Virus record (IMG/VR): IMGVR_UViG_3300032304_002285
Span: 64,001 to 128,000 of that record
Strand: one strand, 5' to 3'
Length of the DNA stretch: 64,000 bases
DNA from: a virus
Each line of letters starts with the position of its first letter. Position 1 is the first letter of the stretch. A model generated the notes under the pieces. It was not told the DNA's origin and made no database searches. It saw nothing but the letters and a program-made list of their open reading frames with translations. A program made the translations under genes and the position numbers. Shown piece by piece: positions 7,035 through 52,005 of the stretch.

Positions 7035-7110
7035 GGTGGTTTTGTTGTAAAGGAAGCATGGATGGTTGTGAACCATCAGGTGTAGGGTTCAAGTCCCACA
7101 TTCCACCCCA
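7035..7110 (+). tRNA. tRNA-His(GTG), weak acceptor and T stems
   Basis: Anticodon arm GATGG-TTGTGAA-CCATC. G-1/C73-compatible ends and CCA. Some mismatches in the acceptor stem. Confidence 0.8.
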
Positions 7111-8181: not shown

Positions 8182-8328
8182 TGGTCGGCAAGGTTTGGAT
8201 GTTCTGTGAAAGCTGACACTTGACTGTTATCAGATAGGATCGCAACCTGTTTGAGTCAAGATGCCTGGGGAACAGGCTTCAGGCGGAACGCAAGAATATC
8301 ACGGGTTCAAATCCCGTCCGATCAACCA
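8182..8328 (+). ncRNA. 147-nt tRNA-shaped RNA with a ~70-nt structured insert at the anticodon position
   Basis: Acceptor TGGTCGG/CCGATCA + A + CCA. T arm ACGGG-TTCAAAT-CCCGT is identical to that of tRNA-Leu(TAA). Variable-arm-like GCG-GAA-CGC. Internal stems CTTGACT/AGTCAAG and GCCTG/CAGGC. Confidence 0.65.
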
Positions 8329-8867: not shown

Positions 8868-9271
8868 GGGCCTGACATGGTTTCGATCAAGTGAATGAGG
8901 GTTAGGATTGCATGCAGAGGATGATCGTTGGCCTCTTAAAACTTCGATCAAGTAAGTAACTGCGGAAACTCTTGAGTTCCCCGCTATGCCCATTGCTGCC
9001 TGATCTAGGGTAGTAAAGGGTATGGTCTAAGCCATCAGCAAAGTCTATAAGGCTGATGGGGTTGTCTTAATGATTCGCTCTTGAGACACACAGAATGATA
9101 GGCTGGCTTCAAGGTGATGCCGGATAGCTAAGAAGCGAGAGTTCTGACGGCTGGATGCGCTTAACCTGCTGTGAGGGGAAAAGGCATTGAGAAAAACAAA
9201 TCACAGACAAGCATGTAGAGTCTTGCCGGAAAGCATTTGAGACCGGGGTTCGACTCCCCGCAGGTCCACCA
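8868..9271 (+). ncRNA. ssrA: tmRNA
   Basis: 5' GGGCCTGACATGGTTTCGA. 3' T arm GGTTCGACTCC followed by CAGGTCC-A-CCA with a G3:U70 pair. The tag ORF at 8962-9003 follows TAACT and encodes AETLEFPAMPIAA*. Confidence 0.92.
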
Positions 9272-9319: not shown

Positions 9320-9344
9320 ATTTCCCAGGAATTCTTTAAATGTT

Positions 9345-9372
9345 TTGGATTTTCGAGATTGTTGGGTAATAC
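9345..9372 (+). promoter_or_regulatory. Bipartite promoter motif, copy 3
   Basis: TTGGAT-N16-TAATAC(AT). Confidence 0.65.
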
Positions 9373-9421
9373 ATGGATGAAAAAATAATTTACTGTAAGA
9401 ATTTGTGGAGGGTTATTAGGG

Positions 9422-9778
9422 ATGATTACTGCCAAAATTAAATCTGAAGATCAAGAAGTTTATATTGGTTGTTACTATGAAATGCCTGATGGAAAGATTG
9501 CTTGTCTTACTTGTTGGAACGGGATAAAGAAGACTTTTAGTTTTTATTGTGATGATGGGCTTGGCCTTCAGGAATCGCCATGTGAAGAATTGAAGAAGTG
9601 GGTTTTGTGTCGAGACTTGAATGATTTTCCTAATAGCAGTGATCCAAGGTTGCCTTATGTCTTTGATCTTTTTTGGGATCTAAAGAGGGTTTCTGAGCTT
9701 CGGTATGGGTTGGAACATGGTCATGAGGATTCTGATTTAATAAGGGATGAAATGGTTCGGTGGGGGATTTCTCTTTAG
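9422..9778 (+). CDS. Hypothetical protein
   Basis: 118-aa ORF with GGAGGG RBS, behind the promoter motif. Confidence 0.7.
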   Translation: MITAKIKSEDQEVYIGCYYEMPDGKIACLTCWNGIKKTFSFYCDDGLGLQESPCEELKKWVLCRDLNDFPNSSDPRLPYVFDLFWDLKRVSELRYGLEHGHEDSDLIRDEMVRWGISL

Positions 9779-9804
9779 TTTTTTCAAAGAATTAGAAAAA
9801 CGCT

Positions 9805-9832
9805 TTGGATTTTGATTGCTTGATGGTAATAC
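9805..9832 (+). promoter_or_regulatory. Bipartite promoter motif, copy 4
   Basis: TTGGAT-N16-TAATAC(AT). Confidence 0.65.
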
Positions 9833-9880
9833 ATTGTTGTCGATAAGAGATTGAGTTAATCACGATAGGAGATTGGCAAA

Positions 9881-10498
9881 ATGTTGAACATTTGCTTGTT
9901 GAAAATCTTGGATAAAAACAATCCGACTCCCGCTATTGATGCATTGATGAAGGTTGGATTGAGCAATGTTGAGGCTCAAGATGCTGTTGTTGAGCTTTCG
10001 GGGTCATTTCTTTCTTTGGTTGCTGTTAGGACTGAAGATATCTGGCCTGTTGATTTGAGTGAGTTTTTCGTTTTTGAGTTTATTCAAAGGGTTGAAATTA
10101 CTCTTGAGACAGCTTTGTTTCCCAAGGAAAAGATTCATGGGATTCAGGCTATCCGTGCTGCCACGGGAATGGGCTTGGTGGATTCCAAGGATACGATTGA
10201 GAATCTTTTTATGGGAGTGCATACCAAGATTCAGTCTAAGCCTGAAGAGGTTGAGAATTTGAGGAAATGGTTTACTCTTACTGCTGAGGAGTTGGGTCCG
10301 GTTCCTCAGCCTTATGTTCCTGGTCGGGTTGTTCAAAAAAACACGATTAGCCATTGTGTTGGTAGTAGTCATAAAGAAGAGGCAATGGAGCACATGTCTG
10401 CCTTTGCCAAGGAGCTTTTGGATGAAAAGAAATGGGAAGCTGCTCAGAACATTTGCAACTTGTTGAGCATTTTGAAGACTGTTGAAGAATATCAATAA
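9881..10498 (+). CDS. Ribosomal protein bL12 (L7/L12) CTD-like domain protein, paralog 1
   Basis: EKIHGIQAIRAATGMGLVDSKDTIE resembles the bL12 CTD pattern KI.VIK.VRA.TGLGLKEAK.LVE. The C-terminal helix pair is shared with the paralogs. Confidence 0.7.
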   Translation: MLNICLLKILDKNNPTPAIDALMKVGLSNVEAQDAVVELSGSFLSLVAVRTEDIWPVDLSEFFVFEFIQRVEITLETALFPKEKIHGIQAIRAATGMGLVDSKDTIENLFMGVHTKIQSKPEEVENLRKWFTLTAEELGPVPQPYVPGRVVQKNTISHCVGSSHKEEAMEHMSAFAKELLDEKKWEAAQNICNLLSILKTVEEYQ

Positions 10499-10512
10499 GG
10501 AGCATTGAGGAA

Positions 10513-11100
10513 ATGAAGAGGATTCGGCTAGGTTTTATTAAGCATACTTATAGTTCTCAGGCTGCTATTGGCGCTCTTGAGGTGAACGGTGTGGTTCGAG
10601 AGCAAGCCAAAGAGGCTGTTGCTTGTATGATTAAAGGGATTAGGTCTTTTATTGTTACGACTAATGACAAGTGGGTAGCTGATTTGAATGAGTTTTTTGA
10701 TTTTGAGTTTGTTGATAAATATTATGTTTCTCTTATCAAGGTTTTCTATCCCAGCCAGAAATTTGAAACCATCAGGAGTCTTCGGGCTGCTACTGGTTTG
10801 GAGTTGAAAGAAGCCAAGGAAGTTTATGAGGCGGTTCTGGGTGGGGGAACGAAAAGGATTGAAGTTAACCCTGATGTTGTGGATGATTTGAAGAAGTGGT
10901 TTGATATTATTTATGAGCAATATGTTATTAAATCGGAAGAATTGCCTGCTGTTGTGAGTCCGGTTGGTAGTAATAAGGATTTGGCGATAGAGCATCTTTC
11001 TTCTTATGTCAAAGAGCTTCTTGATGACAGGAAGATGATGGCTGCAAAGAGTGTGTGTAATCTTTTGGGTATTTTGAAGAATGTTGAGGATTACCAATAA
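10513..11100 (+). CDS. bL12 CTD-like domain protein, paralog 2
   Basis: QKFETIRSLRAATGLELKEAKEVYE. C-terminus ...CNLLGILKNVEDYQ. Confidence 0.7.
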   Translation: MKRIRLGFIKHTYSSQAAIGALEVNGVVREQAKEAVACMIKGIRSFIVTTNDKWVADLNEFFDFEFVDKYYVSLIKVFYPSQKFETIRSLRAATGLELKEAKEVYEAVLGGGTKRIEVNPDVVDDLKKWFDIIYEQYVIKSEELPAVVSPVGSNKDLAIEHLSSYVKELLDDRKMMAAKSVCNLLGILKNVEDYQ

Positions 11101-11116
11101 AAAGCTTGTGAATGGT

Positions 11117-11144
11117 TTGGATTTCTGTCTTTTTTGGGTAATAC
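11117..11144 (+). promoter_or_regulatory. Bipartite promoter motif, copy 5
   Basis: TTGGAT-N16-TAATAC(AT). Confidence 0.65.
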
Positions 11145-11185
11145 ATAGATGTCAATAAGGATTGAGAACAAAGGAGATCGGCAAA

Positions 11186-11758
11186 ATGGCTAGTGTGACT
11201 TTGAAGAACATCAAGGGTGGGATTTCCATGAAGGATGCGGAGTTGGCTCTTTGTGGGGCTGGTGTTAGTAATTATCAGGCGGAACAGGCTGTTGCTAATT
11301 TGTCCAGGAATGTTCCCAATCATTTTGTGGTTGAGACCAATGATCCTTGGGGTGTTAATCTTTATAATTACTTTGATCTTGAGCTTAGTCAGGCTGTGAG
11401 TGTTCGTTTGCATCGGATGTTGTTTCCTGGGGAGAAGATTGCCACCATCAAGGAGCTTCGGGCTGCTACGAATATGGGCTTGAAGGATTCCAAGGACATT
11501 GTTGATGCGGTTCATGTTGGGGATTCTCGGATTGTCAATGTGATGAGTGTTGATCGTATTAATAAATTGAAGGACTGGTTTGATCTTAAGGAAGTTTCTC
11601 CGAATGGCTCTTCGGTTCAGGTTGGAAACAACAAAGAGGAAGCCATGAAGTATATGGCTGCTTTTGCCAAGGATCTTTTGGATGAGAAGAAGTGGGAGTC
11701 TGCTCAGAACATTTGCAATTTGCTGAGCATTTTGAAGACGGTTGAAGAATATCAATAA
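11186..11758 (+). CDS. bL12 CTD-like domain protein, paralog 3
   Basis: EKIATIKELRAATNMGLKDSKDIVD. Start set to ATG 11186 behind AAGGAG. The C-terminal ~35 aa are nearly identical to paralog 1. Confidence 0.7.
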   Translation: MASVTLKNIKGGISMKDAELALCGAGVSNYQAEQAVANLSRNVPNHFVVETNDPWGVNLYNYFDLELSQAVSVRLHRMLFPGEKIATIKELRAATNMGLKDSKDIVDAVHVGDSRIVNVMSVDRINKLKDWFDLKEVSPNGSSVQVGNNKEEAMKYMAAFAKDLLDEKKWESAQNICNLLSILKTVEEYQ

Positions 11759-11772
11759 GGAGGATTGGGAGA

Positions 11773-11907
11773 ATGAAGAAGGGTGGGACTCCGAAATACA
11801 CAAAGCCTGATAAGAGTGGGCATAGCCGGATGAAAAAGAGTTCTGGGATTTTAGGAATGATTCGAGGGAAGTTACGGGAAGCCAAGAAGAGGGCAAAGAG
11901 ATTGTAA
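11773..11907 (+). CDS. 44-aa highly basic small protein (absent from the ORF track)
   Basis: GGAGGA RBS. MKKGGTPKYTKPDKSGHSRMKKSSGILGMIRGKLREAKKRAKRL*, followed by a terminator. Confidence 0.5.
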   Translation: MKKGGTPKYTKPDKSGHSRMKKSSGILGMIRGKLREAKKRAKRL

Positions 11908-11933: not shown

Positions 11934-11976
11934 AAGCCGGGAATCCTTAATTGGATATCCCGGCTTTCTTTTTTTT
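11934..11976 (+). terminator. Intrinsic terminator
   Basis: AAGCCGGGA/TCCCGGCTT followed by a T tract. Confidence 0.75.
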
Positions 11977-12016
11977 AATATTTGAGGTTTTTATAAGAAA
12001 TGGTTTTGGAGATTTT

Positions 12017-13567
12017 ATGTTTAATAAGTCTATGGTTGCCAAAGAGCTATTGAAAATATCCAGCTTGATTTTAGGTGGTAGGGGCTGGAGTTGGAGCAAT
12101 TACGGGGCATGGGTTTTACCAGATGGTAAGGTATTGCCTGTTGCTGTTGAGTTTACTCATTATGATGTTGCGGCTGAATATTTTCAGAAAAAAGATCCTA
12201 AGCATTTCAATAACATTTATTCCTTGGATCAGTTTTTCAATGAGGGTTGGGTTAGGGTGGTTTTTAGGCAGTCGTTGAGTGTAGAGATTAAGAGCCGGGT
12301 TTATCCTGCTCAGAGAGAAGTTTTATTGAAAATGGTTGAGGATTATCCAAGGCGGAATTTTTACATAGATGACTATCCCTCTTCGATTGTGACTGAGGAT
12401 GCTGAGGAGGCTAGGGATAGGATAAGGGCTGCAAGTCTTAAGAAGGCTACCGAGATTAAGTGGAGTGATTATGGGGCATGGATTTTACCTGATGGTAAGG
12501 TTTTAAGAGTTGGGTATCAAGAGCACATGGAGACTGCTGAGGAGTATTTTAATAAACACAAGATTGAGATTGAGACCAATCCTTATGTTGAGGCTTTCAA
12601 GAGGGATTGGGTAAGGGTTGTCTTTAAGGAGATGGGGATAGAGATGGGGAGTAATCTTACTTCCAAGCAGAGATATGTATTGGAAGATATGGTTGATGAT
12701 AATCCTTATACGTCAAAAGTGTTTTTTGATAGGAATGGTACTACTAATATTAATTTCAGCACGGATGATAAAGAGTCGGCAATCAATAAGATTAGGGCTG
12801 CTGGTTTGGTTAATGCTGCTTCATTTCATTTTACAGATTATGGGGCATGGATATTGCCGACTGGGGGAGTGTTGAGGGTAGAGGATCATCAACAACATGG
12901 CGCTGTTGCCTCTAAATATTTAGCAGGTAAGGGCATTGAGGTTGATAGTTATAATAGTTACAGTGAGGCTTTCAAAGAGGGGTTGATTCGGATTCAATAT
13001 GGATCTGATTTGAATATTGAGATCAATAGTCGTATTACGCCAAGGCAAAGGAATACTCTTCTTGCCATGGTAGATTCTTTCCCGAAGAAAACGGTTATGA
13101 TAGACAAGGATATTTATACGACTCATTCTCAGACTTTTGCTTTAGAGAATAAGGAAGATGCGAAAGAGAGAATAAGGTCTGCTAGTATGAGGGTTGCTAA
13201 GGATTGGAGTTTTCGGGATTACGGGGCATGGGTATTGCCTAATGGAGATGTTTTACGGGTCAAGGGTTTTTTTGAGCATTCGGAGGTTGCTGGTAGTTAT
13301 ATGAAATTCAATGATATTGTTTTTAAGGGAAGTCCTTATGATAAGGCGTATAAGATGGGATGGGTTCGTGCTGTATTTCTTCCTGATTTAAATTTTGACA
13401 TTCAAAAGGGTTTAACTTCTCAACAGCGTTCGGTTCTCACTGACATGTTAGATGATTATCCTAAAGAGACTGTTATTATTTCTAGACCATCTAGAGAGAT
13501 ACAATTTGATGAGAAAGAAAAGGCTTTGAATTTACTTAGGGTTGCTTCTTTAAAAAAAGTTGGATAA
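12017..13567 (+). CDS. Leader-bearing protein with four tandem ~125-aa repeats
   Basis: Start ATG 12017 (MFNKSMVAKELLKISSLILG). Four units of YGAW.LP.G.VL.V...H...GWVRV...QR..L..M, each ending RIRAAS-like. Confidence 0.8.
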   Translation: MFNKSMVAKELLKISSLILGGRGWSWSNYGAWVLPDGKVLPVAVEFTHYDVAAEYFQKKDPKHFNNIYSLDQFFNEGWVRVVFRQSLSVEIKSRVYPAQREVLLKMVEDYPRRNFYIDDYPSSIVTEDAEEARDRIRAASLKKATEIKWSDYGAWILPDGKVLRVGYQEHMETAEEYFNKHKIEIETNPYVEAFKRDWVRVVFKEMGIEMGSNLTSKQRYVLEDMVDDNPYTSKVFFDRNGTTNINFSTDDKESAINKIRAAGLVNAASFHFTDYGAWILPTGGVLRVEDHQQHGAVASKYLAGKGIEVDSYNSYSEAFKEGLIRIQYGSDLNIEINSRITPRQRNTLLAMVDSFPKKTVMIDKDIYTTHSQTFALENKEDAKERIRSASMRVAKDWSFRDYGAWVLPNGDVLRVKGFFEHSEVAGSYMKFNDIVFKGSPYDKAYKMGWVRAVFLPDLNFDIQKGLTSQQRSVLTDMLDDYPKETVIISRPSREIQFDEKEKALNLLRVASLKKVG

Positions 13568-13611: not shown

Positions 13612-13815
13612 ATGAGCTATCGTCCCAATGTAACGGATAAGAGTCAGAACGAGTTAGAGAGTGCTGCTTTTGAGGGTGGTATTCCTGTTCATGTTGATCA
13701 GAAGGTAGTTGTTGATGTTAAGGGCAAGGGTGGTGCTGAGAGGAAGATTGGTGGGGTTATTGTTTCTTGGAAGGACAATCCTGGTAAATTTATGGACAAC
13801 GTTGGGAAACCATAA
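13612..13815 (+). CDS. Hypothetical protein
   Basis: 67-aa ORF with AAGGAG RBS. Confidence 0.6.
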   Translation: MSYRPNVTDKSQNELESAAFEGGIPVHVDQKVVVDVKGKGGAERKIGGVIVSWKDNPGKFMDNVGKP

Positions 13816-14064
13816 ATGAAAACATTTCTTGTTGAATTGGTTCTTGGCTTATTGGGGAAGTTTATCGGTTGGCTTTCCAATAAGAAGAAGGAGGCGGATA
13901 AGAAGACGGTTGATTCTCAGGATCAATCTATTAAATCCGTTGGGGAATCAATTAAGAAGGAAGATGAAATTAGGAAGGAGCAGGAAAATGTTGACAAGAA
14001 TCCTTCCGATGTTCGGAAAGAGGATGGTTCTATTGATGTTAGCGGTTGGAATGCTGGGAAGTAG
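13816..14064 (+). CDS. Putative inner-membrane spanin (Rz-like)
   Basis: N-terminal hydrophobic segment LVELVLGLLGKFIGWL followed by a charged coiled coil. Its 3' end overlaps a lipoprotein gene. Confidence 0.55.
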   Translation: MKTFLVELVLGLLGKFIGWLSNKKKEADKKTVDSQDQSIKSVGESIKKEDEIRKEQENVDKNPSDVRKEDGSIDVSGWNAGK

Positions 14065-15230: not shown

Positions 15231-15336
15231 ACGATTTTTGGAAAGATTTTGTAAGTAAGTTAATGAAGATTGTTAAAAAGTTGCTTTTTTATAAAGATTA
15301 GGGATATTAGAACAGATTACGGAAAAGGGGTTGTTT

Positions 15337-16572
15337 ATGAACAGTACTAGGAAAAGAGTTGCGGCTGAACTTCTTAAGATGGCTCGTGAGTTAACTTCTT
15401 TTGAGTTTGATACAGAAGATGCTCTTAAGAAATATTTGCATGATCATCCTGGTGCAGACAGAAGCCACCATTCTGTAAAGACCAAAGAGAATAAGCCGAC
15501 TACTACTGAAAACCCTTCTACTCAAAAACAGGAAAAGCCAGAACAGGTTCCTTCTCCCAAGAAGGAGGCTCCGGTTGAGGAGAAAAAGGATACTGTGGTT
15601 GAGACAGAGGATATTCTTCCGAAGGGTGGTTTTTTGAAGGAAGAGGAATCTTCTTTGCCGAAGAAGACAAAGCAGGAAGTGAGTGATCCTGATCAACTCT
15701 TCAAGCAGGCTGAAGAGACTAGAGAGCTTATGTTTGATTGGCTTGATAGGGGTAAGGGAATTGACAAGGCGATTGGAGCCAGGACTTATGATTCTAGTCC
15801 TGATAATGAAGAATTGGACAAGCCGGGTCCAGTTGTTTTGATTGTTCACAATAAGGAGAGAGAGAAGTCAGAGAAGAAGGTAAAGAAGAATTATAAGGGA
15901 GATTGGTCTGAGTTGTTGGATGTTGTTAGAGCATCTGTTGCTGTTGATGGTATTGATGATGTTCCTGGGGTAATGGATGCCTTGAGGAAGTCGGGGATGA
16001 AATTAGCCAAGAAGCCTAAGGATAGGTTTTCTGAGCCAACTGATGTTGGGTATAGGGATATTCTTTTAAGTGTGAAATATCCCAATGGGCATGTTGGTGA
16101 ATTGCAGGTTCATGTAAAGCCTGTTCTTAAGGCTAAGAGTATTGGTCATAAATATTATGAAAACATTAGACCATTTGAGGAGAAGGCAGAAGCAGAGGGT
16201 AGAACCGTGATGACTCCTGAGGAGCAAAAGGAGATAGATCATTGGAATGGGTTAATGAAAGATGTCTATGGAAAGGCTTGGGATGAGGTTATAAAGAAGA
16301 AGAAGGCGGGTGGGGCTAAGGTTGAAAACAAAGAGCCGGGGAAAGTAGAGGCATCAATGGTTGCTTCTCAGGTCTCATATTATGAATATGAGGATAAACC
16401 GGCAATGTGGGTTCAGGGTCATTTCCCTCAGTATTTGATGAAGGGAGAGATGGCTTATACTTATGATTTGTTTAAATTTTTCACTCTTGTAAAAACGATT
16501 AACAAGTCAAAGTTTGATGAGTTGATGGAAGAGCACAGACAAGAGCACATGTCTGATAAATCTAACAAGTAA
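15337..16572 (+). CDS. RelA/SpoT-type (small alarmone synthetase-like) nucleotidyltransferase with shared N-terminal leader
   Basis: KEREKSEKK..NYKGDWSELLDVVRAS...KDRF..P...GYRDILL...GHVGELQVH...GHKYYE follows the RelA_SpoT SYNTH motif order. Leader RVAAELLKMARELTS. Confidence 0.7.
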   Translation: MNSTRKRVAAELLKMARELTSFEFDTEDALKKYLHDHPGADRSHHSVKTKENKPTTTENPSTQKQEKPEQVPSPKKEAPVEEKKDTVVETEDILPKGGFLKEEESSLPKKTKQEVSDPDQLFKQAEETRELMFDWLDRGKGIDKAIGARTYDSSPDNEELDKPGPVVLIVHNKEREKSEKKVKKNYKGDWSELLDVVRASVAVDGIDDVPGVMDALRKSGMKLAKKPKDRFSEPTDVGYRDILLSVKYPNGHVGELQVHVKPVLKAKSIGHKYYENIRPFEEKAEAEGRTVMTPEEQKEIDHWNGLMKDVYGKAWDEVIKKKKAGGAKVENKEPGKVEASMVASQVSYYEYEDKPAMWVQGHFPQYLMKGEMAYTYDLFKFFTLVKTINKSKFDELMEEHRQEHMSDKSNK

Positions 16573-48117: not shown

Positions 48118-51100
48118 ATGTCTAGAATGTGGGTTCGCAATGATGGCTTTTTAATTATTGAATGTGATTATGAGCAACGGAATTTGGTAAAAGAGATAGG
48201 TGGGAGATGGGATGTAGTAGAAAGGGCTTGGGTTGTTGCATTTAGTATTTCCAATGTGGAATATTTAGTTGACGAGATTGATTCTTTAACGGTTGATCAG
48301 TCTGTTGAAGATAAGCTGCATCAACAGATAGAAAAAGAAGACAAGCTAAATAAAATCCGGGAAATGTCCAAACAGGATGTTCCGGTTCGTCTTCTTGTCC
48401 CTGGTCTTAAGGAGAATTGTAGACTCTATAATTACCAAAAACTGGGTGTTGTCTATTCTTTAACAAATGCAGAAGGGGTATTAATTGCCGACGAAATGGG
48501 TTTGGGAAAATTTTGTGCTATAAACACCCCCGTATTAACAGCTTATGGCTGGCAACCAATTGGTTCTTTGAAGGTCGGGGACATGGTTTATTCGAGGGCT
48601 GGAACCCTTAGCCGGGTAAATGGAGTTTATCCTCAGGGTGTGAAAGAATTACTGAAAGTAACTTTTAGTGATGGGTTTTCATGTGAGTGTGGGTGGGAGC
48701 ATCTTTGGATAGCCCAGACGGACAACAATGCGAAGAGGAAGCAGGGGTGGAGAGTTCTCGACACTCGACAATTATTTGGTGACTTACACTACAAGGATAA
48801 AAGGGCCAAGTGGCGGATACCCTTGGTCGAACCAATCGCCTATAACACTAAGACGTATATCATACCACCATATCTAATGGGAGTGTTGCTTGGGGATGGT
48901 TCCTTGACAGATGGAGTAACCTTTGTTCCTGGGGATGATGAAACTCCATTTCTTGTACAGAAGGCTGTACCTCCGGGTTATAGCTTGCATAAGAATGCTG
49001 ATTATGGAACGTCAACTCGGTATTCTATTGTTTATAAAGGCAGTGGATACGAGAACCCACTAAAAACTCAAATTGTTAAATATGGACTAAATGTTACTGG
49101 GGAAAGGAAGTTTATTCCTCATGAATATCTTGAAGGAAGCATAGAACAACGGAAGCAGTTGTTGGCTGGCTTATTGGATACAGATGGTTCTGCAATGAAA
49201 GCTAGGACTAGGTTTTCAACAGTATCGGAACGTCTTGCTGATGACGTTATCGAGCTTGTTCATAGTCTGGGTGGAATGGCTACTAAGTCTCTTGTTCCTG
49301 GCAGATTAAGGGTAAGGGATGGGAAGCAGGTTCAGGAGCAGGATTGTTGGCAATTGGTTGTTAGAACTAGTTTTAATCCATTTTCCCGTCCATCTTCTAT
49401 TGCGAAGTGGAAGAGATCATCAAAACTTGTCAGGAATATTGTAAGTATTGAGCCTGTACGGTATGATGATGCGGTATGTATTGCTGTTGATTCCAAAGAT
49501 CATTCGTATGTTATTCAGCATCATATTGTAACACACAATACCCTGCAAGGTCTTGCTATTTCGTTGGTTAGGAAGAATAAGAACGGGGCAAAAAAGTGTC
49601 TTATTGTCACTCCTGCTTCTTTAAAGTACAATTGGCCAATTGAAATCGAAAAATTTACAGATGAGAAGTTTGTGGTAATTGATGGGAGTCCAGAAGAGAG
49701 GATTGCTCAATGGATGCGGGATGACGTTTATTATTACGTTGTTAATTTTGAGCTTATTCTTGAGGATTTGTTTGGAGGTAGGGAATATAAAGAAGATCCA
49801 GATGATGATGAAGAGAAGACTGCCAGAAAAAAAGAATTAAAAGCTAAGGCTCAATTTAGGAAGAAAATTTTAAGTTCTGTAAAAGAACGAGATTGGGATA
49901 TGATCCTTGTGGATGAATCCCATGCCCTTAAATCTCATGCTAGCAAGAGAAGTAAGTGTATAAAGCAATTGAAGAGTAAATTCCGAGTGGCTTTAACAGG
50001 TACTCCGATGGATGGGAGATTAGAAGAGTTACATTCAGTTATGGAATTTGTTTATCCTGGGTTGTTGGAATCAAGAACCAGATTTCTTCAGAAGCATGCC
50101 ATTACTGATTTCTGGGGAAAGGTGACTGGGTATAAAGATATTGATGATGTAAAGAAGCGGATAGCTCATTGTTTTATTCGCAGATTAAAGGCTGATGTTT
50201 TAAAGGACTTGCCTAATAAAATCTATCAGAATAGGATTGTGGTTCTATCAAAGGAAGAAGAAAAAATCTACAAGGCGTTAGCTTCTTCGGGTCATGTAGC
50301 AACCCAAGATACTGAAGCCATGGTTACTGTGATCAGATGTAAGCAGTTTTGTGATTATCCTGGATTAATTGGTGAGAATTGCAAGGTGAATTCTAAGCTT
50401 GAGGCTTTTAAGGAGATTTTGGATGAGGTAATTATTCAAAATGGGCATAAGGTTCTGGTTTTTAGTCAGTATAAGCAGATGATAGATGTTTTGGTGAAAG
50501 TAATGGAAGAGATGAATCTGAAATATCTTCGGATTGACGGAGATACACCAAAGCAGCTTCGAGCGGGGATGCAAAAGCAATTCAACGAGGATAAATCAAT
50601 AGATTCGATGATTGGCACAGAGGCTATGTCTACTGGTTTGAATTTCACCTCTGCTGATTATGTAATTAATTATGATGACAATTGGGCTCCTGCTATTATG
50701 GCTCAGAGGGAGGATCGGTGTGTTATAGAGGGTCAGTATGTCAATACGGATCGCGGGATGGTTAAGATTGAGGATGTTAAGACTGGGGATATGGTTTTAA
50801 CTCATCGGGGTAGATATCGGAAGGTATTAGACGTATGGAATAAACTTCATAGATCTAATACAACTGGTGGATTAACAACGGAAATCAAATACAGAAGATA
50901 TGGCTATCCATTAAAAGTAACCCATGATCATTTAGTTTTGATCCTTAGGGGTGAAAAAATAGATTGGATGGAGGCAGTTGATGTCCGTCCTCGTGATTTT
51001 TTATTATCTCCTATTTTGTCTGAAGAAAGAAATGACCCTGGTGAATTGGAATTTCCAGAGGAGTTTTCTTTTAATAAGATGCAGAGATTAAATGGTTCTG

Positions 51101-52005
51101 CTGAATTTGTTAATGGTAGATATCATCCATTGCCAAGAGCCATCAAGATAGATGACGACTTCCTTTTTGTTGTTGGTTGGTATTTGGCGGAAGGGTTTTG
51201 TTCTATTTCAAATGACAAAGGCAAGTTTGTTTCTTTTTCTGGGCATGTTAAGGAGATGAGTATTCTGGAAAGGATAAAAAAGTATTCTAAGGAAATACTT
51301 GGAATAAATGGAACAATAAATAAGCCAGCAACTAACGGGATAGAATTAAGAGTATATAGCTCTGAGTTGGCTTTTTGGTTTGAAAGTTTATTTGGGGGCG
51401 AATGTTTTAAAAAACAAATACCCCACGATTGGCTTGTAAAGTGGGATATAAAATATTTAGAAAAAATATATGGAGCATATGTCCAGGGGGATGGGTATTT
51501 TAGAAGGAACACTAAAGAATGGGTTACTGTTTCTCCAATTCTTTCTTTACAAATGACGAAAATAACCGAAATGATGGGTTATCCTTCAACGTTGAGGCAG
51601 GTTGATAATTGCCATAATAAGGGCCATTGGATTGGCGCTTTAACGGCAAATGGAGATTACAGAAGTTCGCCTCTTTTAAATAAGAAAGTGGATGGTTATG
51701 TATGTCTTCCTGTTTCTGAGGTTATGACAAGAATAGAGACCAGTAAGAAAGTTCGGGTTTATGATTTAACTGTTGAGGAAGATTCTTCCTTTGTTGTTGG
51801 AAGGGCGGCTGTTCACAATTGTCATCGCCTTGGCCAGAAAAATGTAGTTAATGTAATTAATTTTGTTTGTAAAAATACGATCGAGGAAAGGATTCGTGGT
51901 GTTTTATATGGAAAGTCTGTTGTTTCAGCGGAGACACTTGGGGATGATGTAGACGATATGGTTTTACATCGGTTGGGACCTAAAGATATTGCTAAATTGC
52001 TTTAA
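48118..52005 (+). CDS. SNF2-family helicase precursor with two inteins (~585 aa after splicing)
   Basis: ADEMGLGK|TLQ (motif I), LVDESHALK (II), ALTGTP (III), KVLVFSQY (IV), AQREDR|CHRLGQ (VI). Confidence 0.92.
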   Translation: MSRMWVRNDGFLIIECDYEQRNLVKEIGGRWDVVERAWVVAFSISNVEYLVDEIDSLTVDQSVEDKLHQQIEKEDKLNKIREMSKQDVPVRLLVPGLKENCRLYNYQKLGVVYSLTNAEGVLIADEMGLGKFCAINTPVLTAYGWQPIGSLKVGDMVYSRAGTLSRVNGVYPQGVKELLKVTFSDGFSCECGWEHLWIAQTDNNAKRKQGWRVLDTRQLFGDLHYKDKRAKWRIPLVEPIAYNTKTYIIPPYLMGVLLGDGSLTDGVTFVPGDDETPFLVQKAVPPGYSLHKNADYGTSTRYSIVYKGSGYENPLKTQIVKYGLNVTGERKFIPHEYLEGSIEQRKQLLAGLLDTDGSAMKARTRFSTVSERLADDVIELVHSLGGMATKSLVPGRLRVRDGKQVQEQDCWQLVVRTSFNPFSRPSSIAKWKRSSKLVRNIVSIEPVRYDDAVCIAVDSKDHSYVIQHHIVTHNTLQGLAISLVRKNKNGAKKCLIVTPASLKYNWPIEIEKFTDEKFVVIDGSPEERIAQWMRDDVYYYVVNFELILEDLFGGREYKEDPDDDEEKTARKKELKAKAQFRKKILSSVKERDWDMILVDESHALKSHASKRSKCIKQLKSKFRVALTGTPMDGRLEELHSVMEFVYPGLLESRTRFLQKHAITDFWGKVTGYKDIDDVKKRIAHCFIRRLKADVLKDLPNKIYQNRIVVLSKEEEKIYKALASSGHVATQDTEAMVTVIRCKQFCDYPGLIGENCKVNSKLEAFKEILDEVIIQNGHKVLVFSQYKQMIDVLVKVMEEMNLKYLRIDGDTPKQLRAGMQKQFNEDKSIDSMIGTEAMSTGLNFTSADYVINYDDNWAPAIMAQREDRCVIEGQYVNTDRGMVKIEDVKTGDMVLTHRGRYRKVLDVWNKLHRSNTTGGLTTEIKYRRYGYPLKVTHDHLVLILRGEKIDWMEAVDVRPRDFLLSPILSEERNDPGELEFPEEFSFNKMQRLNGSAEFVNGRYHPLPRAIKIDDDFLFVVGWYLAEGFCSISNDKGKFVSFSGHVKEMSILERIKKYSKEILGINGTINKPATNGIELRVYSSELAFWFESLFGGECFKKQIPHDWLVKWDIKYLEKIYGAYVQGDGYFRRNTKEWVTVSPILSLQMTKITEMMGYPSTLRQVDNCHNKGHWIGALTANGDYRSSPLLNKKVDGYVCLPVSEVMTRIETSKKVRVYDLTVEEDSSFVVGRAAVHNCHRLGQKNVVNVINFVCKNTIEERIRGVLYGKSVVSAETLGDDVDDMVLHRLGPKDIAKLL
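48511..49539 (+). mobile_element. Class 3 intein (343 aa, N-terminal Phe) with LAGLIDADG homing endonuclease
   Basis: Inserted in Walker A (GLGK|T). WCT signature: EHLW, AVCIAVDSKDHSY, IVTHN. LAGLIDADG motifs LMGVLLGDGS and LAGLLDTDGS. Confidence 0.85.
50719..51819 (+). mobile_element. Class 1 intein (367 aa) with LAGLIDADG-like endonuclease
   Basis: Begins CVIEGQYV, block B VTHDHLV, ends VYDLTVEEDSSF...VHN|C in helicase motif VI. Endonuclease motifs VGWYLAEG and GAYVQGDG. Confidence 0.9.

Follow-up and report, generated by a model that had tools for sequence, protein, structure and literature searches.

All translational GTPases land on the stalk domain of ribosomal protein bL12 (L7/L12). 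Domains of this kind were already reported in phages in 2019, where they are often embedded in larger unrelated proteins, keep the EF-G and EF-Tu contact residues, and have been acquired repeatedly; the authors suggested that they might provide interfaces for translation factors (Mizuno et al. 2019, PMC6375957). Here we describe three tandem genes, each encoding a protein with a domain homologous to the bL12 C-terminal domain (CTD), located at positions 9881 to 11758 of a 64,000-nucleotide stretch of DNA from a very large uncultured phage (the window) that comprises bases 64001-128000 of a 180,758-bp IMG/VR virus record (IMGVR_UViG_3300032304_002285). Like the proteins described in 2019, those encoded here carry a bL12 CTD without the ribosomal N-terminal domain, have a nonribosomal scaffold and keep the factor-contact residues. 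The former, however, are products of single genes, with one domain on unrelated scaffolds of 98 to 724 amino acids (aa), whereas in this locus the domain is duplicated, the gene is triplicated and a conserved hairpin is present. Phage bL12-domain proteins are, as a kind, already known; the new features are an internal duplication of which one copy is degenerate, a hairpin that defines the family, triplication of the gene behind promoter-like repeats, and a conserved neighborhood with a phage transfer-messenger RNA (tmRNA) gene. Our reading, held tentatively and at less than even confidence, is that the three genes encode soluble, nonribosomal derivatives of the bL12 CTD, acting as stalk-domain mimics that would bind GTPases or other stalk clients, with a hairpin for docking and with tuned surfaces.

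An earlier note on this DNA, made from the sequence alone, had proposed three tandem paralogs built around a bL12 CTD-like domain. The three open reading frames (ORFs) are indeed present on the plus strand, and each matches PF00542 (Pfam Ribosomal_L12, the bL12 CTD), whose curated cutoff of 25.9 bits is exceeded by paralogs 1 and 3.

9881..10498, plus strand: paralog 1, 205 aa; PF00542 match with an E value of 3.5e-6 and 27.7 bits (above the cutoff) over profile positions 8-55 of 67, and alignments
Parts of paralog 1: domain 1, 9881-10081; bL12-CTD-like domain 2, 10082-10294; a linker; hairpin, 10364-10495
10513..11100, plus strand: paralog 2, 195 aa; PF00542 match with an E value of 8.6e-5 and 23.2 bits (just under the cutoff); same architecture
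11186..11758, plus strand: paralog 3, 190 aa; PF00542 match with an E value of 1.4e-7 and 32.1 bits; AlphaFold2 pLDDT of 81.4; fold matches
Parts of paralog 3: domain 1, 11186-11389; domain 2, 11390-11596; a low-confidence linker; hairpin, 11627-11755

Overall identity among the three paralogs is 38 to 47%, and an AGGAG-type ribosome-binding site lies 8 to 10 nt ahead of the ATG in each. Paralog 2, the most divergent, starts 15 nt past the stop codon of paralog 1 with a ribosome-binding site of its own. For paralog 3, the start is most likely ATG 11186 rather than TTG 11162, from which the frame is also open, because of the position of the ribosome-binding site and because the 190-aa product is also the form present in the protein collection. 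The helix-turn motif given in the earlier note, K[IF]..I..[IL]RAAT.[ML][GE]L..[SA]K, was found in all three paralogs. The two flanking motifs needed slight amendment: the N-terminal degenerate motif is exact in paralogs 1 and 3 and off at one position in paralog 2, and the C-terminal hairpin motif holds for paralogs 1 and 2 and is off at one position in paralog 3 (K for E).

A profile of the three paralogs compared with the PDB detected bL12 chains only (E about 1.5e-4), with the alignment covering helices 4 and 5 and the turn between them, and the family profile recovered genuine bL12 proteins at E values of 1e-5 to 1e-6. The structure of paralog 3 was modeled with AlphaFold2 from a nine-sequence alignment (mean pLDDT, 81). 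In this model, residues 2-68 have a beta-alpha-alpha-beta-(short helix)-beta arrangement and residues 71-136 a beta-alpha-alpha-beta-alpha-beta arrangement, followed by a low-confidence linker (138-147) and two long helices (149-166 and 170-189). Domain 2 of the model superposed on the Escherichia coli bL12 CTD (1ctf) with a Z score of 7.5 and a root mean square deviation of 2.1 Å over 60 residues, at 27% identity. The best-matching stretch was exactly helices 4-5. The overall charge of domain 2 is acidic, as in the bL12 CTD, and helix 6 is shorter than in bL12. Structural neighbors in BFVD were phage bL12-domain proteins (N4-like, Ralstonia and crAss-like) and phage ClpS, and a search by shape in a structure atlas returned only small bL12-like or unnamed clusters. 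Domain 2 is, then, alike to the bL12 CTD in fold, sequence, helix 4-turn-helix 5 signature and acidic charge, and the assignment in the earlier note was borne out by Pfam, the PDB profile search, the 1ctf superposition and the alignment.

ClpS, the N-degron adaptor of ClpAP, belongs to the same fold class and ties with bL12 in the fold searches, with Z scores of 7 to 8 for domain 2 and 5 to 6 for domain 1. Identity to ClpS is only 7 to 17%, however, and for domain 2 it is 7 to 15% against 25 to 27% to bL12; the Pfam ClpS family (PF02617) gave no match at an E value of ≤0.1 in an hmmscan of the paralog proteins and a six-frame search of the genome. What is conserved corresponds to bL12 helices 4 and 5 and seems not to be a ClpS pocket. 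As fold scores tie but bL12 alone matches by sequence, domain 2 was assigned to bL12 and is a true homolog of its CTD, with ClpS and bL12 sharing one fold class. A ClpS-like fold only, which the earlier note had named as counting against its proposal, was not the outcome.

The tie with ClpS also bears on a rival explanation, which we consider somewhat unlikely, namely that the proteins are generic adaptors unrelated to translation factors, in which the ClpS/bL12 fold and the TPR-like hairpin would bind proteins for some other process; examples are the quality control of RNA, with Ro60-like or tmRNA partners, and the delivery of protease substrates. Many nonribosomal proteins carry the signature: the same KI.AIK..R..TGLGLKEAKD.V motif occurs outside the ribosome in bacterial "L7/L12 C-terminal domain-containing" proteins as 3 to 6 tandem repeats. 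Those proteins, as read from their sequences, contain only the motif unit of ∼35 to 70 aa and no hairpin, some with a hydrophobic or zinc-ribbon-like N terminus. Set against a generic adaptor are the sequence comparison with ClpS described above and the identity of the retained residues, which are those of the bL12 factor site.

The alignment of the family with genuine bL12 indicated no variation at the positions matching E. coli R73, L80 and K84, and hardly any at that of I69, across all eleven family members and bL12 itself; the equivalents of K65, K70 and E82 are mostly retained or conservatively replaced. The residue numbering of this site follows Kothe 2004 and Helgstrand 2007. In bL12, the positively charged helix 4/5 site of the CTD binds IF2, EF-Tu, EF-G and RF3 (PMC6753160).

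Domain 1 provides a comparison within the same protein. It aligned end to end with domain 2 in a profile-profile comparison with hhalign (64 columns; probability, 89%; E 2e-6) and had no match in Pfam. When folded alone, it reached a pLDDT of 82.5 and a pTM of 0.71, and a comparison with 48,161 PDB representatives without a prefilter placed ClpS and the bL12 CTD in the top six positions (Z, 5.0 to 6.2), with all others at ≤4.5. These results support the view, put forward in the earlier note, that domain 1 is a degenerate internal duplicate of domain 2. In the hhalign alignment, domain 1 lacks the equivalents of K65, K70, R73, L80 and K84 and its predicted fold is nonetheless kept. The fold, hence, does not need these residues, and that domain 2 has kept them speaks for a function; with domain 1 as an internal control, the alignment would point to a binding function that has been kept in domain 2.

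The hairpin, formed by the last ∼44 residues, is the most conserved part of the proteins. Between paralogs 1 and 3, it has 84% protein identity with a proportion of synonymous differences (pS) of 0.60. The ratio of nonsynonymous to synonymous substitution rates (dN/dS) was 0.06 to 0.16 for the hairpin and 0.6 to 1.0 for domains 1 and 2, the latter values being near saturation and rough. As synonymous sites have diverged while the protein is conserved, conservation of the hairpin is due to constraint (purifying selection) and not to recent gene conversion. The helical hairpin of the earlier note is, thus, present both in the AlphaFold2 model and in the substitution pattern. Its pattern, A..LL..G.[FYW]..A...V.NLLSILK, reads like a single helix pair of the tetratricopeptide repeat (TPR) type; TPR profiles gave no match to the hairpin, and only a weak match to 4HB was obtained (E, 0.006 to 0.07). 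A hairpin hidden Markov model searched against all six frames of the genome detected the three paralogs only. Prediction of a homodimer of domain 2 plus hairpin gave a score of 0.13 (mark, 0.42), which counts neither way on self-association. Hairpin helix 1 (..FAKELLDEKKW.., window 10370-10420 and 11640-11690) has AKELL in common with an amphipathic N-terminal tag (K.AKELLK.AK.L) that occurs on many unrelated proteins of this genome (tags at 2444, 12017 and 15337). A link between the hairpin and this address tag was judged to be a five-residue coincidence, the residues being conserved in the relatives from other phages and the patterns diverging afterwards.

In comparison with bL12, the phage proteins lack the N-terminal domain for dimerization and bL10 binding and add a degenerate domain copy in front and the TPR-like hairpin behind, in three tandem genes. 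PF16320, which represents that N-terminal domain, had no match in the paralogs at an E value of ≤1, and the hairpin had no similarity to the bL12 N-terminal domain (hhalign probability, 0.3%), so that the absence of a bL10-binding N terminus claimed earlier was upheld. These results weigh on the proposal that the proteins enter host ribosomes instead of bL12, with the hairpin as an N-domain analogue on the bL10 helix, to give a phage-specific stalk. The layout of hairpin, flexible linker and CTD is a permuted echo of bL12, and a peptide of one phage bL12-domain protein was present in washed E. coli ribosomes; however, that protein, when tagged, could not be used to purify ribosomes (PMC6375957). 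We regard replacement of the stalk as very unlikely.

The distribution of the family was examined in large sequence collections. No second two-domain protein was found outside this record among 5.8 billion clustered proteins or 1.84 billion representatives, GenBank phages had no match by DNA, protein or tblastn search, and two scans of metagenome contigs yielded no additional loci. The unit of domain 2 plus hairpin was detected in eight metagenome proteins of 114 to 138 aa, all on contigs of <4 kb, and a more distant 125-aa version is present on two IMG/VR contigs. The family is very rare. Two of the contigs with short members hold two or three family genes in tandem, and P0007/P0152 and P0153/P0034 are orthologous pairs across contigs (support for the second pair, 100/100). 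These orthologies indicate that tandem pairs arose long ago and have been kept. All three copies in this genome share the duplication that gave domain 1; the most parsimonious account is that the domain was doubled once within the protein and that the gene was then duplicated twice in this lineage. Two other "viral" contigs, L038 (a 529-kb IMG/VR contig) and L009, carry full-length bL12 with both N- and C-terminal domains, unlike the CTD-only phage proteins.

The short-member contigs derive from relatives of this phage. The neighbors of the family member on contig L043 have homologs elsewhere in this genome, and contig L039 (1-3770), from a distant relative, holds, in order, a tmRNA gene (3′ part, E 2e-8), a tRNA-Met gene, a single-domain family member, a gene for a vWA-containing, 586-aa TROVE/Ro60-like protein, and a pair of small ORFs. 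This pair has homologs in the window just past the array, and a tmRNA gene lies upstream of the array.

8868..9271, plus strand: phage tmRNA gene (ARAGORN; Rfam RF00023, 112 bits), ∼600 nt upstream of the paralog array
13612-13815 and 13816-14064, plus strand: two small ORFs, markers of the conserved module; blastp identity to the L039 ORFs of 39% (E 7e-9) and 58% (E 1e-22), respectively

Upstream flank of 600 bp or more is available for two contigs, this record and L039, and in both a tmRNA gene lies within ∼0.6 kb of a family gene. With two contigs of shared ancestry, this adjacency is a lead and not a statistic. The earlier note had proposed a takeover of translation by these proteins together with tRNAs, tmRNA and a RelA-like enzyme. 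Gene order in L039 lends some support to the tmRNA link; the RelA-like part gained none, the "RelA/SpoT-like" protein at window 15331-16572 matching Pfam RelA_SpoT only below the cutoff (E 0.0015, 19.2 bits versus 27). The TROVE/Ro60-like gene of L039 takes the slot held in the window by a 538-aa repeat protein (11951-13567), which has four internal repeats of ∼125 aa each (DYGAW.LP.G.VL.V ...), the N-terminal amphipathic tag and a weak Pfam match to EpmC, the EF-P hydroxylase (E 7e-4, under the cutoff). A TROVE/Ro60-like gene adjoins single-domain relatives in L039-L041, and a Ro60 vWA-like fragment lies beside the L005 member, as would suit the generic adaptor with a Ro60-like partner; against this, no Ro60 homolog was found in the 180-kb record, of which the completeness is ∼51%.

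That completeness was estimated with CheckV, and on this basis the complete phage genome is probably well over 300 kb. Searches of the record for genes encoding translational GTPases, bL10, SmpB, ClpS and Ro60/TROVE found none, a weak absence given the missing half. The plus strand carries nearly all long ORFs, and GC skew is strongly positive across the window (1-64000; 0.16 to 0.55 in 2-kb windows); long antisense ORFs that span the paralogs are likely by-products of this skewed composition. The triplet locus lies a short way past an array of ∼18 tRNA genes and the tmRNA gene. An additional low-scoring tRNA-like element at 7036-7107 (Rfam, 37.4 bits) was not called by ARAGORN. At 8182-8328 there is a 147-nt tRNA-like RNA, the ends of which resemble the tRNA-like domain of the Rfam tmRNA model (E 0.0011, far under the gathering score); this RNA was recognized neither as a tRNA nor as a member of a Y-RNA-like family. 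Elsewhere in the window, at 48118-52005, an SNF2-family helicase is split by intein and homing-endonuclease domains (Pfam LAGLIDADG, Hint and Intein_splicing).

The transcription signals of the locus are repeated. A 41-nt direct repeat (TTTGGATTT, 13-15 nt, GGTAATA[CG]AT; the genome-wide consensus extends to GGTAATA[CG]ATAGATG) lies ahead of paralogs 1 and 3 and of a 118-aa ORF, in agreement with the earlier claim that paralogs 1 and 3 sit behind a repeated motif with a putative promoter role.

9339..9379, plus strand: promoter-like repeat copy 1, ahead of the 118-aa ORF (direct-repeat family D9; genome-wide motif scan)
9422..9778, plus strand: 118-aa ORF behind copy 1; no family matched in Pfam or PHROG
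9799..9839, plus strand: promoter-like repeat copy 2, ahead of paralog 1 (direct-repeat family; genome-wide motif scan)
11111..11151, plus strand: promoter-like repeat copy 3, ahead of paralog 3 (direct-repeat family; genome-wide motif scan)
11773..11907, plus strand: 44-aa very basic ORF (pI 11.6), coupled to paralog 3; no family recognized
11934..11977, plus strand: terminator-like hairpin and U-run closing the unit; RNA fold of -21.8 kcal/mol, z of -5.4, 0/200 shuffles as good

The motif has ∼13 copies in 180 kb, all on the plus strand and always before genes (window 9345, 9805 and 11117 plus ∼10 others), and the copies cluster before small-gene arrays (genome 40-51 kb) and before the bL12-like genes. 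It probably represents a phage promoter class. Searches of Pfam and the PDB with the 44-aa basic ORF gave no match. From the repeat positions, the coupled 44-aa ORF and the terminator-like hairpin, the likely units are the 118-aa ORF alone, paralogs 1 and 2 together, and paralog 3 with the 44-aa ORF.

Several diversified paralogs behind a repeated promoter motif resemble counter-defense gene arrays, and effectors captured by the stalk do exist: PDB 8phj, in which cA4-bound Cami1 is on the 70S ribosome, was among the bL12 matches. Free copies of the bL12 CTD could be decoys that sequester toxins or effectors of the host whose route to the ribosome is through docking on bL12. No defense-related neighbor or homology was found, however, and this purely inferential reading seems quite improbable.

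Our preferred reading remains that the proteins act as stalk-domain mimics. It rests on the homology of domain 2 to the bL12 CTD, the retention of the factor-site residues there but not in domain 1, the strong purifying selection on the hairpin and the absence of the bL12 N-terminal domain, and also on the recurrence of a translation-related context in L039, the tandem copies in relatives and the documented existence of phage bL12-domain proteins (PMC6375957). In the mechanism envisaged, domain 2 would engage translational GTPases of the host, or other clients of the stalk, through its helix 4/5 surface and off the ribosome. Docking of the three paralogs, either to a single shared partner or to one another, would fall to the invariant hairpin, and with the rapidly diverged surfaces of domains 1 and 2 the paralogs might differ in the clients they prefer. 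The genes would be transcribed from the phage-specific promoter class, beside the tRNA array and tmRNA, and host translation would be retuned during infection.

Several points weigh against this reading. Scored by fold alone, ClpS equals bL12. The helix 4/5 motif occurs as 3 to 6 tandem repeats in many bacterial proteins without an assigned function, so that the motif alone is no proof of a link to translation. The isolated bL12 CTD reportedly binds factors only weakly (Helgstrand 2007), and a monomeric decoy might, hence, be ineffective unless oligomerized. Conservation of gene order around tmRNA may only mirror common descent of related phages, the available half of the genome contains no translational GTPase, bL10 or SmpB as a dedicated partner, and the dN/dS values of domains 1 and 2 are rough, having been calculated close to saturation.

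A more specific extension, which we consider unlikely as it stands, is that a clade of very large phages has a conserved module in which tmRNA and tRNAs travel with bL12-CTD mimics in free form. Host EF-Tu, EF-G or IF2, or host effectors that depend on the stalk, would be captured by the mimics, such that factor supply would be redirected to phage tRNAs and tmRNA or stalk-targeting defenses would be disarmed; in this lineage, doubling within the protein and tripling of the gene would let the mimic serve several clients. With three diverged paralogs, an internal negative control and a constrained docking hairpin, the locus is a clean system for asking what a free stalk domain does during infection, and the recurring phage tmRNA neighborhood hints at some connection with ribosome rescue or with the delivery of factors.

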